In this document: one piece after another, positions 58,365 to 63,360 of the stretch
Layout of the letters: every line of letters starts with the position of its first letter
How positions within the stretch are numbered: position 1 is the stretch's first letter
Origin: a phage
Direction: 5' to 3' (one strand)
DNA length: 64,000 nucleotides
NCBI GenBank assembly: GCA_011939005.1
Contig: GCA_011939005.1_4858.1
Notes under the pieces: model-generated
Databases searched by the model: none
The model's input: the letters and a program-made list of their open reading frames with translations, nothing else
What the model was told of the DNA's origin: nothing
Made by a program: the position numbers and the translations under genes

Positions 58365-58859
58365 TTACAGTTGGTTTTCTTCGCGGTCGTCTGTCAGTAC
58401 GGCTGCGCAGATAAAGCGTGCGAGTTTCAATTTCGCAGCAGCCGTCTGTTCTGCAGATGGGTTTGGGTCAACCGGTGCAGCCAAATCGACATCTGCCAGC
58501 TCTTCCGCGTATTTCTCAGCAGCTTCATCGAAGCCTGCACGGATACCTGCCAGAAGGTCTTGTACCTCATCGCTTGGCACAGGACCATCGATAAGAATCT
58601 TCTGAGCGTCAGACGGTTCCACATCAGCAAAGTTCATTTCGTTTAACATGCCAATGCGTTCTGCGTTAGAGGTGATGAGTTGTGCCAACAGTTTTTCAAA
58701 ACGGTTGATATACTCATCGTCCAACGGTTGACCGGTCAGTAGCTCGTAGTAGCGGGCCATAAGTGTGTTCGCGTCGGCCCCTTCCTCATGACGCACGCCT
58801 AAATCAAAATCGTGCTGAGGGAGCTGACCTAATTCGATCATATCCATAGTTAACCTCAA
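58365..58859 (-). CDS. hypothetical acidic protein (164 aa)
   Basis: ORF in operon. Confidence 0.45.
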   Translation of the reverse strand: MRLTMDMIELGQLPQHDFDLGVRHEEGADANTLMARYYELLTGQPLDDEYINRFEKLLAQLITSNAERIGMLNEMNFADVEPSDAQKILIDGPVPSDEVQDLLAGIRAGFDEAAEKYAEELADVDLAAPVDPNPSAEQTAAAKLKLARFICAAVLTDDREENQL

Positions 58860-58887: not shown

Positions 58888-59178
58888 TTACGCCGTTACC
58901 GGAACAGGGGTGATTAACAGCTCCCCTTCCACCTCACGTAACTGATAACCGTACATAACGTTGTAGGATTTAATGCCGTCGCGTTGTTTGGCTTTCGCGA
59001 CGAGTTTTTCCAACACGCGACTATGTGCACGAGTCATCTCCTCTTTCGGATAAACAACTTGGAGCACGTGCTGTTCGTCAATAACGGCACGGAACTGCAT
59101 TACATCACCGTCTTCAACGTTGTAAACGACTTCTTTAGACTTCGACACTGTACGATTAATTTGCATTATTTTCTCCAT
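58888..59178 (-). CDS. hypothetical protein (96 aa)
   Basis: ORF in operon. Confidence 0.4.
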   Translation of the reverse strand: MEKIMQINRTVSKSKEVVYNVEDGDVMQFRAVIDEQHVLQVVYPKEEMTRAHSRVLEKLVAKAKQRDGIKSYNVMYGYQLREVEGELLITPVPVTA

Positions 59179-59968
59179 TAGTAGTTTTCAGGGCACGTCC
59201 GTAGATATAACTTTCAGGTAGCCAACCGTTTTCTAATAACCACATTGCGGCAGGCCCCCCAGTATATTGGTGATAAGTGTAAATCAGTTCATCCCCCACC
59301 GGTAATTCAGACTGGATACAGTGCATCAACAGCCCGAACTCCTCCCGAGTTAGAGTAACCACCCCTTCTGCGGTAAACCACCCACCAATAACCCAGCGTT
59401 GTCCACGATGTGTGAGCACTGTCAGTTTGTAACTATCGCTGTTCCGCCACGACATCATCCTCCCGCCCGTAACGAGCGTTGAGTAGATAGAGCTTGTACC
59501 GTAAAGCATCCTAACCCAATCCAAGAACGCTTTCTTACTATCGAACAACGAACTGACATCCCCACAGAAATCCTCATCGTGGCTAGGCACCGATGAATTA
59601 ATTTTGCGATAGTTTATCGTTTCGCAACAAAAGCCCATGCGTGCATATTCGTCCCCTTCAGAACGAGTAAAATGCATCGCGTAGTTACGCCCAGCTGCAC
59701 GAAGTAAGGAATCCGCAAGCGAGGTTAACTGGGCGTCTAAAGCACGAACCATATTGATAACTTCTAACATGTATCCGTGGTCCAGACAGAGCACGATCGC
59801 ATCAGGCGCAACCGTGTCCCGACTGAATACTTCAAAGATTCGGTAGTAAAGACGACGTTCATCTTGTAACGTGGAAGGATCGATATCATTTAACAACGAT
59901 AACGCTTTACGGTCTTCCAACCACGTTCGGTCCAGAATCCTCTCCGTGCGTTCGATAACTCTCAGCAT
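59156..59968 (-). CDS. hypothetical protein (270 aa)
   Basis: ORF in operon. Confidence 0.45.
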   Translation of the reverse strand: MLRVIERTERILDRTWLEDRKALSLLNDIDPSTLQDERRLYYRIFEVFSRDTVAPDAIVLCLDHGYMLEVINMVRALDAQLTSLADSLLRAAGRNYAMHFTRSEGDEYARMGFCCETINYRKINSSVPSHDEDFCGDVSSLFDSKKAFLDWVRMLYGTSSIYSTLVTGGRMMSWRNSDSYKLTVLTHRGQRWVIGGWFTAEGVVTLTREEFGLLMHCIQSELPVGDELIYTYHQYTGGPAAMWLLENGWLPESYIYGRALKTTNGENNAN

Positions 59969-59977
59969 ATTCTCTCC

Positions 59978-60781
59978 TTACGCAAGGGTGTAATGATGCG
60001 TGATTACACGATACTCTAACCCTTCGATAGAAGGAAACTCGTGCTCTATCGCAACACCCATGTTGACCTTCTTACCTTTCTGTCCCGCCAAATGCAAAAT
60101 GGCGTGGTAGTGTTTTAGAAACTCTACCGAGTAGGCAATCGGGTCAAAACTTTGGCAGCAGAATTGCTCAGTAATGATGCTCTTCGGGAACTCCTTATAG
60201 AGCATTAATGAAAACGGTTTCTGGCCGTGTAACCCTACAAACGCGGAAACAAAACCATTTGCTAACTCGCCCAACATCTCTCGCGTTCCTGCGTCTTTTA
60301 GCGTAGGTCGCATCAGATAGCAAACATCTTGGGTTTGTTCTAATGACAATGTCTCCAACGGGACAACCGATGGGTCTGACGTAAAACCGTATTTCGGACT
60401 GACAGTAATCTCCACACGTTTCGTTACAGCTTCGAACCCCAGACGCTGGTATAATGCTGCGTGTTCGGTGTCGTGCGGGAAACAGGTAATATCAAGCATC
60501 TGCACTTCCAGGAGTCGCGTTAAACGCTTCCACTCGTGGAACAGGGGCTCGGAAAGCACGTGCAACTCGTAGATGTAGTAAACAATACCTGAACGACATC
60601 CACGAAAATACATTTGCGCACGACCGCTATTGCTCAACACTAACCAATGATCGTCTTCTTGGTCTGCGACGGGTCGCAAATCTTGAATCCGTTCGCGGAG
60701 TTGCCCCAAGGTGGTCAATCGACCACTAAACTCTACGGTCAGGTCGTTTTTGTCCATACCGTATAGATTAAATAGTTGCAT
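59978..60781 (-). CDS. hypothetical protein (267 aa), possible acetyltransferase-like fold
   Basis: Segment HAALYQRLGFEAV resembles GNAT motif B; weak. Confidence 0.4.
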   Translation of the reverse strand: MQLFNLYGMDKNDLTVEFSGRLTTLGQLRERIQDLRPVADQEDDHWLVLSNSGRAQMYFRGCRSGIVYYIYELHVLSEPLFHEWKRLTRLLEVQMLDITCFPHDTEHAALYQRLGFEAVTKRVEITVSPKYGFTSDPSVVPLETLSLEQTQDVCYLMRPTLKDAGTREMLGELANGFVSAFVGLHGQKPFSLMLYKEFPKSIITEQFCCQSFDPIAYSVEFLKHYHAILHLAGQKGKKVNMGVAIEHEFPSIEGLEYRVITHHYTLA

Positions 60782-60790
60782 GTTGGTACC

Positions 60791-61609
60791 TTATAGGGTG
60801 CCGATTAGCTCTGTCACCGCTTTACGCTTATTCGCATCCGCAGACATATATCGACCTACCTGAACTTCGCGCCAAGTAAAGCCGTAGTAGATGTCACGTG
60901 TGAGTAACGTATCTGCGTTTGACAGAACGACCTTATTGCCATCGGCAGCTTGTTGTTTTAAAAGTTTCGCTAACTCGCGGTGGTCAGCTTGTGAAAATTC
61001 TTTGCTGTGATACTGCGCGTGTTTAGCCGTATCCGAAAGTGGGATGTAAGGCGGGTCAGCGTATATCACAGCGTTAGATGGGCATTTATTTAGGATATCG
61101 CGGAAGTCCGCGCAGAGCAGCTCGACGTTGGTTTCCGAACAACGTTTTGCCCACGCCAGAATTTCCTCTTCAGGGAAATAGACACCGTTCGGGTGTTGAC
61201 CATAAGGCACGTTAAACCCACCCGACTGATTGTATCTGCACAAACCATTGTAACCATGACGTGTAAGATACAGGAACATCGCGGCGCGCTGGAGATTAGG
61301 TTTCCCCGTGGTTGCTTCGCTGTTAAATTCCTCGCGTCGTTTCATGTACAGACCGCGGTCCGTCCCATTTGCAAAGAGTGCCTTTGCTTCCAGAATCAGC
61401 GCTTCCGGACGATCGCGCGCCATGGTCAGTAACTCGATTAAGTCTGGGTTCGTGTCGCCGAGAATATAGTTCGGGTATTTAGTGTTTAAAAACACTGACC
61501 CTGCACCCACAAACGGTTCAACGAAATACTCAGCATCTGGAAGCACCTGTAGCAGCTCGGGAAGTACGCGACTCTTACCACCCATCCATTTTAAAATTGG
61601 TCTTATCAC
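60791..61609 (-). CDS. dam: DNA adenine methyltransferase (Dam-like, N6-adenine, D12 class)
   Basis: N-terminus LKWMGGK...VEPFVGAGSVFLNT and catalytic DPPY (IYADPPYIPLS), colinear with E. coli Dam. Confidence 0.85.
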   Translation of the reverse strand: MIRPILKWMGGKSRVLPELLQVLPDAEYFVEPFVGAGSVFLNTKYPNYILGDTNPDLIELLTMARDRPEALILEAKALFANGTDRGLYMKRREEFNSEATTGKPNLQRAAMFLYLTRHGYNGLCRYNQSGGFNVPYGQHPNGVYFPEEEILAWAKRCSETNVELLCADFRDILNKCPSNAVIYADPPYIPLSDTAKHAQYHSKEFSQADHRELAKLLKQQAADGNKVVLSNADTLLTRDIYYGFTWREVQVGRYMSADANKRKAVTELIGTL

Positions 61610-61615
61610 CCGTTA

Positions 61616-62614
61616 TCATCCTCTCATGCCAGATTGAAACATATCACTAATAGTCAGCCTGGTTGTAGTCTCCACCGGAAAGCTAGGTTCTTCATTCAGC
61701 ACTCGATCGGCGCGGTTTCCATTCACCCGTTTCCAGCTAATAAGTTCAGGATCGCGTTTCAACGTTAGTGTACGCAGTACCTGCTTGCAACGTAAGATGT
61801 TGCCATACAGGTGATTTGCTGGATTATTATCAGCAGCTGTTTCAATATAGACTTGGTCGGAATGACGTTGTGCGAAATCGAATAGCGCGCCCATTAGCCG
61901 GCGGCCAATGCCACGTTTACGGTGCGTGGGTGCAACGGTTAAACCAGAAAGTTCAACGACGCCTGGTGTAACCAAGCGCATCTGGGCAATACCGACGATA
62001 TCATGACCGTCTCGCCAAATTGCAGTCTCCACATTAGCGTGCTGAATTCTTGCTATTACTGTTTCTGCTAACGGACCAATGTGCGTATAATAGCCACGCA
62101 CATCGTATTCTAGCTCTTCGCAAATTGCACCGCTAATCAAATTCAGGATAACGTCTTTATCTTCCTTGGTAAGTTCTGCGTATGCATCACCAGAAATAAT
62201 CTTGATTTCCGATGCGGTGATTACTTTGTCAAACAGTTTAGAATGACATGCCCAAACGATATCTGAAAGAACAAACCCTTTTTCGACCAGTTTTTGTTCA
62301 ACATCGTCAGTAGGTGCTGGGCACGACATATATTCGAATCCTGTGTGGTCGAGCACAAGGGCCAAACCAACTTTATCGAACGCCCCAGGTACAAACTCCT
62401 CAAAATAGTGACAGGTTAGTGTAGGGTCACCGTGTCGATAGGTGGCCACTAAATAACCCTCCCAGGTTTCTTTATTCTTCACCACGTAAACAGAATAAGT
62501 CTCGTCCTTTAGAAACTCTTTTAGGCGGCGTGCTCGTACAGTATCGGTACCGACGTTATTTCGGAACTCGGCAGTGCGGATGCTGGTGCGAAACAATTTA
62601 GCCACAGTTTTCAT
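61616..62614 (-). CDS. GNAT-family N-acetyltransferase domain protein (about 332 aa)
   Basis: Internal ATG with GAGGG RBS; C-terminal acetyl-CoA binding motif R-K-R-G-I-G-R-R-L (R..G.G/A). Confidence 0.6.
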   Translation of the reverse strand: MKTVAKLFRTSIRTAEFRNNVGTDTVRARRLKEFLKDETYSVYVVKNKETWEGYLVATYRHGDPTLTCHYFEEFVPGAFDKVGLALVLDHTGFEYMSCPAPTDDVEQKLVEKGFVLSDIVWACHSKLFDKVITASEIKIISGDAYAELTKEDKDVILNLISGAICEELEYDVRGYYTHIGPLAETVIARIQHANVETAIWRDGHDIVGIAQMRLVTPGVVELSGLTVAPTHRKRGIGRRLMGALFDFAQRHSDQVYIETAADNNPANHLYGNILRCKQVLRTLTLKRDPELISWKRVNGNRADRVLNEEPSFPVETTTRLTISDMFQSGMRG

Positions 62615-62667
62615 TGTAATGCCCTCAAAAGGTATTGCTGTCACAACATGAGGATAATGCGTAAAAA

Positions 62668-62702
62668 GACAAAAAATTAAGGGGTCCGAAGACCCCTTAA
62701 TG
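62668..62702 (-). terminator. rho-independent terminator (UUCG loop)
   Basis: Stem AAGGGGTC / GACCCCTT around TTCG followed by T-run on minus strand. Confidence 0.65.
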
Positions 62703-62703
62703 A

Positions 62704-63360
62704 TCACAGTTCAGGTTTGGAGACAAGCGCCGTCCAAGTTTCAGAATGTTTGACACTGACGTGCGCCAAGCGATTCACCATGAACGCAAATTTGTCCATA
62801 TGCTTCTGCACTTCGTTATCAGTCAGATTGCCAGCGATAACTTTACCGTCTTTGGTCAGCACGATATAGCCGTGGTTGTTGTCTACCGTAGTGAACGCCA
62901 CATCAATCGTAACCGGGTAAAGTTTCACCAGCGTCGGCAGAATGTGGCCAACACGATCGGCCATACCCGCAAGCTGGCCACAAAGGTCGGCTTTATCCTG
63001 CATGAACAAACGCAACATCGCTACTGCAAACACCGGATAGATGTTTTCGATTTGCGTGTCGTAACGAGACAGACCGATAACTTCATCACCGCGGGTTAGC
63101 ACCATGTTGTTCAGATGCGCGCCTTTATAGATGGTAAAGCGTACGTCGCTACCAAGGTTAACCGCAACGATTTCCTGACCAAGGTCAATCGGATATTCGC
63201 GCTCGATGTGAATTGTTTTCAGACGTTCACTGATTGGTACAATTACATCCGGTTTAGGAATGGTAGGTGAGCGTGGAGATTCGGTAGTACGCGTTTTTGT
63301 GGATTTAACCGCGCTGCTTGCCATTGAATCTTTTGCTACAGTTTTAGGGGCCTTCGCCAT
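62704..63360 (-). CDS. hypothetical protein (218 aa)
   Basis: ORF with terminator downstream. Confidence 0.5.
   Translation of the reverse strand: MAKAPKTVAKDSMASSAVKSTKTRTTESPRSPTIPKPDVIVPISERLKTIHIEREYPIDLGQEIVAVNLGSDVRFTIYKGAHLNNMVLTRGDEVIGLSRYDTQIENIYPVFAVAMLRLFMQDKADLCGQLAGMADRVGHILPTLVKLYPVTIDVAFTTVDNNHGYIVLTKDGKVIAGNLTDNEVQKHMDKFAFMVNRLAHVSVKHSETWTALVSKPEL

Follow-up and report, generated by a model that had tools for sequence, protein, structure and literature searches.

The 64,000-nucleotide stretch of phage DNA analysed here (contig GCA_011939005.1_4858.1 of assembly GCA_011939005.1; hereafter, the window) carries a predicted six-gene operon on its minus strand, at the head of which lie genes for a two-domain protein of the GNAT acetyltransferase superfamily and a Dam-family DNA adenine methyltransferase. 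Profile comparisons indicate that Dam sits within a tandem array of GNAT-fold proteins, each with two domains; only the first member seems fit for catalysis. GATC, the sequence that this Dam is predicted to methylate, is strongly depleted in the same DNA. We consider it likely that the operon combines an orphan GATC-type Dam, a two-domain GNAT and non-catalytic paralogues of the latter, and that the two enzymes act independently of each other.

By its nucleotide sequence, 97% identical to Seoulvirus genomes, the window belongs to an SPN3US-like giant Salmonella phage (genus Seoulvirus) of the phiKZ-related jumbo type. Over approximately 4.5 kb around the Dam/GNAT pair, 23 Seoulvirus genomes, among them SPN3US, SEGD1, and MET_P1_082_240, have 94–98% nucleotide identity to it. 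In SPN3US, the two genes are annotated as a "putative GCN5-related N-acetyltransferase" (SPN3US_0104) and a "putative DNA adenine methylase" (SPN3US_0105), and the flanking genes (SPN3US_0103 and SPN3US_0106 to SPN3US_0109) as hypothetical. Both names are thus already in GenBank/RefSeq for SPN3US and its relatives, and the identification itself is not new; no mention of gp104–gp107 was found in the SPN3US literature that was searched. The first-pass annotation of the window had proposed a Dam-like methyltransferase adjoining a GNAT-domain protein. Two adjacent minus-strand open reading frames (ORFs) coincide exactly with that pair (Table 1) and match Pfam families PF02086 and PF00583, which bears the proposal out. 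Since the ORFs are long, have strong profile scores, and have orthologues in more than 55 phage genomes, they are not chance ORFs.

The methyltransferase is well placed in the Dam family. It matches PF02086 (MethyltransfD12) with an E-value of 4.4e-54 and 184 bits (cut-off 22) and the NCBIfam model TIGR00571 ("dam") with 257.8 bits (cut-off 114.85), and its motifs follow the alpha-group order of FxGxG, recognition segment, and DPPY. Among sequences in the PDB, its matches include E. coli Dam (EcoDam; E 1e-58), DpnM (2e-40), and T4 Dam (4e-10). The HMMER alignment on EcoDam numbering gives 41% identity and pairs K7, D52, and P135 of the phage protein with K9, D54, and P134 of EcoDam, and the phage DPPY with D181-P-P-Y184. 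Residue roles in S-adenosylmethionine (AdoMet) binding, catalysis, and GATC contact are those reportedly established by the published EcoDam–DNA structure. Eight GATC-contact residues were checked (K9, Y119, N120, L122, R124, N126, P134, and Y138), and all but Y138, which is His in the phage protein, are identical. Because these contact residues are conserved, there is strong reason to expect that the phage Dam is GATC-specific.

The same protein had been called host-like, which overstates the resemblance: besides its 41% identity to EcoDam, it falls well short of the cut-off of the enterobacterial Dam equivalog NF008152 (248.4 versus 441 bits), and it is kept across at least four phage genera. 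Identity is 80–86% within Seoulvirus, 69–70% to Erskinevirus, and 53–55% to Machinavirus and Wellingtonvirus. It is therefore a Dam-family orphan methylase of this phage lineage and not a recent capture from a host. The best PADLOC model is likewise "orphan methyltransferase" (285 bits, with the Type II MTase model at 269 bits), and none of the six flanking proteins matched a nuclease family in Pfam, NCBIfam, or PADLOC, the 270-aa protein being judged by profile only.

The start of the gene also merits correction. The SPN3US and STsAS records begin Dam at an internal ATG, giving 264 amino acids (aa). A GTG at 61609 lies 9 nt downstream of an AGAGGA ribosome-binding site and adds MIRPILKW (61586–61609, minus strand), which restores the conserved ILKW segment with the equivalent of EcoDam K9. 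Additionally, Dam orthologues of Erwinia phages align from residue 1 of the GTG-initiated form, and in Asesino the corresponding codon is an ATG. For these reasons the GTG start is preferred, and the deposited start is probably eight codons too short.

The ATG that starts the neighbouring 332-aa protein is at 62614, 8 nt after a GAGGG ribosome-binding site. A GTG-initiated reading of 363 aa was rejected, as it would cross the upstream terminator and has no support from orthologues, all of which start with MKTV, MRTV, MYSI, or MPII. The suggested GNAT motif is upheld by profile searches: PF00583 (Acetyltransf_1) matches with an E-value of 2.4e-14 and 54 bits (cut-off 20.7), over residues 195–270 only, and three further GNAT models score above cut-off as well (PF13508, PF08445, and PF13673). 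Motif A of the protein fits the consensus Q/R-x-x-G-x-G/A. In a 12-sequence family alignment reaching down to 28% identity, G237 is invariant, and some distant members have Arg instead of the first Gly of the motif. The predicted structure has the GNAT fold in three dimensions. The C-terminal domain, whose acetyl-CoA loop is kept, is probably catalytic, and there is good support from the sequence for its predicted binding of acetyl-CoA.

An extra N-terminal domain had been suspected as well, and it is real: residues 1 to ~130 have no match in Pfam (a per-member scan gave noise only) or among PDB sequences (no profile match at E≤10) and the GNAT profile covers only residues 195–270. When 1.84 billion cluster representatives were searched exhaustively with phmmer, residues 1–180 recurred in only nine clusters, all from the same phage family and all with proteins of 315–353 aa, such that the N-terminal domain never occurs by itself or within a protein of different architecture. 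It thus appears to be restricted to this phage clade and to a single domain arrangement. Tandem GNATs align with the model over approximately 50 more residues than single-domain GNATs do, but the N-terminal domain is modelled at a predicted local distance difference test (pLDDT) score below 50. By a suggestive analogy with tandem GNATs such as MshD, the N-terminal domain could be the substrate-binding half, and both its fold and the analogy itself are held only tentatively. At the other end of the protein, the C-terminal tail, which more distant homologues lack, closes with G-x-R-G in every Seoulvirus member.

No specific GNAT subfamily could be assigned. Among NCBIfam models, RimI, MshD, streptothricin acetyltransferase, Eis, and AAC were all far below cut-off, RimI being the best of the below-threshold matches, and PADLOC gave no match. 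Matches to PDB sequences were marginal, and SpeG chains reached only E ~0.2, so that a spermidine N-acetyltransferase of the SpeG/SSAT type is not indicated. A GNAT toxin of the AtaT/TacT/KacT type, in which a single domain of ~170 aa is paired with a small DNA-binding antitoxin, was likewise rejected for this two-domain, 332-aa protein; its neighbours are Dam and a 218-aa protein without an antitoxin family match in Pfam, and neither is antitoxin-like. The first-pass suggestion that the GNAT might acetylate a host target or a small molecule, for instance to neutralise a toxin, neither gains nor loses support from these searches. SPN3US also encodes a separate, single-domain GNAT of 154 aa (YP_009153389), which has been expressed and had no spermidine N-acetyltransferase activity (PMC9992855). 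That gene (SPN3US 90495–90959) lies outside the window and is distinct from the one described here.

Two further genes of the operon encode distant relatives of the GNAT protein. The 267-aa protein has no match in Pfam, NCBIfam, or PADLOC, and pairwise BLASTP among the GNAT, 267-aa, and 270-aa proteins found no similarity. The relationship was revealed only by profile–profile comparison with hhalign, for which the families were widened with orthologues from Erwinia phages and metagenomes. The GNAT family aligned with the 267-aa family over 226 colinear columns across both domains (score 41.8, P 5e-5), the 270-aa with the 267-aa family over 145 columns (score 35.6, P 2.8e-4), and the GNAT with the 270-aa family over 171 columns (score 26.4, P 0.0095). 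Approximately 80 controls, comprising reversed profiles, column-shuffled profiles, and unrelated families (Dam and those labelled "up", "d", and "e"), gave a maximum score of 20.8. When the three families were split, N-terminal halves matched only N-terminal halves and C-terminal halves only C-terminal halves. The 267-aa and 270-aa proteins are thus, at the level of profiles, domain-for-domain distant paralogues of the GNAT protein. Compared with PDB sequences, their own family profiles gave only spurious matches.

What sets the paralogues apart is the acetyl-CoA loop. In the hhalign alignment, SFDPIAYSVEFL of the 267-aa protein stands opposite HRKRGIGRRL of the GNAT protein, and the R/QxxGxG loop is absent from both the 267-aa and the 270-aa proteins, which may be non-catalytic binders or scaffolds. 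The weak GNAT-like motif that had been noticed in the 267-aa protein is therefore confirmed at the level of fold and profile (P 5e-5 against the GNAT family). The description of this protein as upstream holds in plus-strand coordinates only; in the direction of transcription it lies downstream of Dam. PHROGs files the GNAT and its two paralogues as three unrelated families of unknown function. Recognising them as one two-domain family, with one member whose acetyl-CoA loop is intact and two or three pseudo-enzymes around Dam, turns isolated "hypotheticals" into three or four related targets. In Machinavirus, an additional paralogue of ~252 aa is present (locus L004, 7891–8649; L007, 7884–8648; L010, 7891–8649), and it is related to the second paralogue of Wellingtonvirus (L005, 7175–7912).

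Two minus-strand terminators enclose six genes, in the order GNAT, Dam, 267-aa, 270-aa, 92-aa, and 160-aa, which are separated by 6, 9, and 9 nt, an 11-nt overlap, and 40 nt, respectively; this arrangement argues strongly for a single operon with GNAT and Dam at its head. Dam is immediately downstream of GNAT, with the same gene order, in every genome that has this GNAT family, namely those of Seoulvirus, Machinavirus, Wellingtonvirus, and two metagenomic contigs. However, adjacency alone is weak evidence of a functional link because all of these genomes are globally syntenic relatives. Erskinevirus (Asesino, phiEaH2, and Stratton) is more informative, as it amounts to a natural GNAT knock-out: Dam comes straight after the terminator and leader, with the two paralogues and the two small genes behind it, and no GNAT homologue was found in these genomes by tblastn at E≤1e-3. 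Since Erskinevirus keeps Dam and the paralogues without the GNAT, an obligate coupling of GNAT and Dam is unlikely. Between genera, Dam retains 54–55% identity, compared to 26–31% for the GNAT protein and its paralogues, and is thus about twice as conserved. We conclude from these comparisons that the GNAT is probably an accessory function separable from Dam and that the constant association is between Dam and the paralogues without an acetyl-CoA loop. The GNAT–Dam adjacency is most likely inherited synteny and not a demonstrated functional pair, and the two proteins may well be functionally independent.

The DNA itself bears a mark that involves the presumed Dam target. In the window, GATC occurs 115 times, compared to 303 expected from a trinucleotide Markov model (ratio 0.38). 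This is the lowest observed/expected ratio of the 16 four-base palindromes; CTAG is at 0.62 and most others are at 0.9–1.0. In nine related loci of 8–16 kb each, from five lineages (L001, L004–L007, L009, L011, L013, and L014), the GATC ratio is 0.18–0.48, and GTAC and CATG are mostly near 1 (0.66–1.06). GATC is therefore avoided 2–5-fold across the sampled stretches of a clade that encodes a GATC-type Dam. The remaining sites do not form a dense cluster in the window, with at most 3 sites per 200 bp, at seven scattered places. To encode a GATC methylase while avoiding GATC is a mild paradox, and it bears on how nucleus-forming phages cope with defences that target DNA.

In the reading we prefer, Dam would most likely methylate the GATC adenine of phage DNA at N6, with AdoMet as the donor, and keep the rapidly replicating phage DNA fully methylated. 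Such DNA would resist nucleases specific for unmethylated GATC (MboI/DpnII-type) and be invisible to the hemimethylation readers MutH and SeqA. The phage enzyme might also compensate for host Dam, which may not reach DNA inside the phage nucleus; SPN3US has a chimallin homologue and a square, shell-like lattice (PMC9365700). GATC depletion would then be a second, independent layer of the same avoidance, and in our reading depletion and predicted methylation each protect against GATC-directed nucleases and hemimethylation readers, one layer on top of the other. The GNAT protein would be a two-domain acyl-CoA N-acyltransferase, for which a protein or a small amine is the default acceptor to expect, and the paralogues encoded by the third and fourth genes, being without an acetyl-CoA loop, would act as binders or scaffolds. 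GNAT and Dam would be co-transcribed and probably translationally coupled, yet most likely act independently.

Several observations weigh against parts of this reading. Y270, at the general-acid Tyr position of many GNATs, is not conserved in distant members of the family. Both AlphaFold2 models, built from shallow alignments of 5–6 close sequences, are of low confidence (mean pLDDT 48 and 60), and profile comparisons of N-terminal with C-terminal halves were at the null level, such that the two domains have no resemblance in sequence. Co-transcription and the 6-nt spacer between GNAT and Dam would equally be expected of a functional pair. The searched literature contained no methylation or restriction data for these phages, and the predicted GATC specificity is deduced from residue conservation. 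Finally, depletion is not obviously predicted by protection, and it could equally mean incomplete methylation or selection by a methyl-dependent (DpnI-type) nuclease.

Other explanations differ mainly in what they would have the GNAT-fold proteins do. The GNAT might serve host takeover by acetylating a protein of the host, for instance RNA polymerase or the translation apparatus, in the manner of Rac, with the paralogues as decoys or adaptors and Dam unrelated. Such a role has been proposed for jumbo-phage GNATs (PMC7824862, PMC13282480). The best NCBIfam match, although below cut-off, is to RimI, a ribosomal-protein acetyltransferase; fast evolution of the GNAT-fold proteins between genera is typical of proteins at a host interface; and the GNAT gene is dispensable in one genus. 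However, no specific family threshold is reached and nothing points to a class of substrate, and nucleus-forming phages transcribe with their own RNA polymerases, for which a Rac-like role is less needed. We regard this explanation as unlikely but worth keeping in view, and it is in any case a more specific version of the preferred reading, compatible with it and no true alternative. At the other extreme, GNAT, paralogues, and Dam might form one DNA-hypermodification pathway in which the adenine at or near GATC is further acylated, comparable to phage Mu Mom. The invariant adjacency of GNAT and Dam, their co-transcription with so short a spacer, and the loop-less paralogues that always accompany Dam, Erskinevirus included, would all fit, and jumbo phages have been predicted to carry DNA modifications of the Mom type and others based on GNATs (PMC7824862). 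Nevertheless, Erskinevirus keeps Dam without the sole family member that has an acetyl-CoA loop, hhalign comparisons of the three families with Mu Mom were at the null level (10.9–17.8) and hmmsearch found nothing significant, the rate of Dam evolution is about half that of the GNAT-fold genes, which is not what subunits of one pathway would show, and these genomes were routinely sequenced and assembled. A shared pathway is thus very improbable. Even less probable is a version in which Dam and the loop-less paralogues, with the active GNAT optional, constitute a new DNA-modification module that places an acyl or aminoacyl group on the adenine in or near GATC, perhaps from a donor other than acetyl-CoA, as in Fem-type tandem GNATs with aminoacyl-tRNA; if it were true, GATC depletion would reflect the cost or the recognition logic of the modification.

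The remaining explanations concern Dam itself. It might be mainly regulatory, with the methylation state of GATC setting the time of transcription, replication, or packaging, for which the P1 pac site and Mu mom would be precedents. The small number of GATC sites left after depletion could have a function, one GATC (62702) overlaps the stop codon that comes right before the upstream terminator, and AGATCT occurs in Machinavirus leaders. However, the window has no dense GATC cluster, and the leader GATC is not conserved between genera; we consider a mainly regulatory Dam improbable. Alternatively, Dam might be the methylase half of a GATC restriction-modification pair, the nuclease, directed at host or competitor DNA, being the 267-aa or the 270-aa neighbour, both of which are similar in size to R.DpnII and R.MboI. 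These neighbours of ~270 aa are tightly linked to Dam in every lineage, and in PADLOC the Type II MTase model comes close to the orphan model in score. In contrast, the GNAT fold is found in the 267-aa neighbour, of which the 270-aa protein is a paralogue, and neither has a nuclease match in Pfam, NCBIfam, or PADLOC. The GNAT fold of the 267-aa neighbour and the profiles essentially exclude a restriction-enzyme partner, and we give this explanation almost no weight.

The features of the operon are listed in Table 1. Seoulvirus, Machinavirus, Wellingtonvirus, and Erskinevirus all have the upstream terminator hairpin in the corresponding place. Between it and the GNAT gene, a TTTTTTGTCTTTTTAC...TGTTGTGACAGC element is kept in Seoulvirus and Erskinevirus and has a variant form in Machinavirus, as judged from the upstream regions of six related loci (L004, L006, L007, L009, L010, and L014). 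As a repeated phage promoter it finds no support, for it occurs as a single copy in the window, no more than chance, and it may be the promoter or leader of this operon.

Table 1. Features of the Dam/GNAT operon in the window, in the direction of transcription
Feature	Position	Strand	Basis
Intrinsic terminator, 11-bp stem and T-run; ends the preceding unit, 5' boundary of the operon	62676..62701	-	
Leader/candidate promoter region: TTTTTTGTCTTTTTAC ... TGTTGTGACAGC, then GAGGG	62615..62675	-	
Two-domain GNAT protein, 332 aa; orthologue of SPN3US_0104, phrog_8663	61616..62614	-	
GNAT protein, N-terminal domain, aa 1-130; lineage-specific, conserved motifs GDxTLxCH, LLDHTG, GF	62225..62614	-	
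GNAT protein, predicted catalytic domain, aa 135-290	61745..62212	-	
GNAT protein, Pfam core of GNAT domain, aa 195-270	61805..62032	-	
GNAT protein, predicted acetyl-CoA pyrophosphate-binding loop, motif A R-K-R-G-I-G, aa 232-237	61904..61921	-	translation
GNAT protein, variable C-terminal tail, aa 291-332; low model confidence	61619..61744	-	
Dam-family N6-adenine DNA methyltransferase, orphan, 272 aa, GTG start; orthologue of SPN3US_0105	60791..61609	-	profiles, alignment
Dam, motif I F-V-G-A-G, AdoMet binding, aa 33-37	61499..61513	-	translation and EcoDam alignment
Dam, target-recognition segment Y-N-G-L-C-R-Y-N, identical to EcoDam 119-126	61229..61252	-	EcoDam alignment
Dam, catalytic motif IV D-P-P-Y, aa 185-188	61046..61057	-	translation and EcoDam alignment
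267-aa paralogue of GNAT protein, acetyl-CoA loop lost; SPN3US_0106, phrog_9941	59978..60781	-	
270-aa more distant paralogue; SPN3US_0107, phrog_13677	59156..59968	-	hhalign profiles
92-aa conserved protein, start overlaps end of 270-aa gene; SPN3US_0108, phrog_7896	58888..59166	-	
160-aa acidic conserved protein, last gene of the operon; SPN3US_0109, phrog_8221	58365..58847	-	
Intrinsic terminator, 11-bp stem (6 GC pairs) and T-run; 3' boundary of the operon, 5 nt past its final stop codon	58334..58359	-	

The genes around the array evolve at different rates. The 92-aa and 160-aa proteins have 41–63% identity between genera and are better conserved than the GNAT-fold genes; the 160-aa protein is strongly acidic. 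Upstream of the operon, the 218-aa protein (62704–63360, minus strand; SPN3US_0103; phrog_32024) has ~40 N-terminal residues rich in Lys, Ser, Thr, and Pro. It diverges fast, with 35% identity even within Seoulvirus, and is missing together with the GNAT gene in Erskinevirus. A separate observation concerns approximately ten SPFM phage records (SPFM1, 5–10, 12, 14, 15, and 20, within LR535901–LR535913), which match the region only in short pieces, up to at least 40, and yield odd "hypothetical proteins" with low query coverage. These records look like ambiguous or low-quality sequence and not like genuine divergence.

Compared with characterised methylases, the phage Dam resembles EcoDam (2g1p), M.DpnII-1/DpnM (2dpm), and other alpha-group D12 GATC enzymes in domain order and in aligning over its full length. 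It shares with EcoDam and DpnM the FxGxG motif, the acidic residue for the AdoMet ribose, the YNGLCRYN segment, the proline of NVP, and DPPY. It differs from EcoDam in being only 41% identical, in having His for Y138, and in belonging to a lytic jumbo phage with a GATC-depleted genome. Like the orphan Dams of other phages (T4 Dam, 1yfj; P1 Dam; and those of the P2-like Salmonella phages SW3 and SI7), it is a solitary GATC-type methylase without a cognate nuclease, for which the role usually presumed is self-protection or the avoidance of host readers of hemimethylation. It is much closer to EcoDam than to T4 Dam, and is 47% identical to the SW3/SI7 Dam. Unlike the Dams of T4, P1, SW3, and SI7, it lies inside an array of GNAT-fold paralogues.

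The GNAT protein can be compared in the same way. Among the tandem GNATs (MshD, 1ozp; MAB_4324, 7q3a; VipF, 6wqb), MshD likewise has an intact acetyl-CoA loop in its C-terminal domain only. Unlike in tandem GNATs, the N-terminal domain of the GNAT protein has no sequence similarity to any GNAT, and the MshD NCBIfam model gives 24 bits against a cut-off of 163. Rac of phiKMV-like phages, which acetylates the alpha subunit of host RNA polymerase, is likewise a phage-encoded GNAT and represents the role most often proposed for jumbo-phage GNATs; unlike Rac, the protein described here has two domains and occurs in a phage with its own RNA polymerases. Expression of mom in phage Mu is linked to Dam methylation, and Mom, which modifies adenine at N6, is likewise a GNAT-superfamily protein connected to Dam biology. 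It differs in having no profile similarity to the three families, and the GNAT protein has a canonical acetyl-CoA loop. A parallel to the architecture of the 267-aa and 270-aa paralogues comes from the same phage family: chimallin, the protein of the phage-nucleus shell, has an extra N-terminal alpha/beta domain followed by an inactive GNAT fold at its C-terminus (PMC9365700). An orphan phage Dam and a phage GNAT are each ordinary in kind, and what is added here is modest and lies in the detail. Beyond these known systems, the comparisons point to a clade-restricted array of GNAT-fold paralogues around Dam, a genus that is without the GNAT, and GATC depletion throughout the clade.

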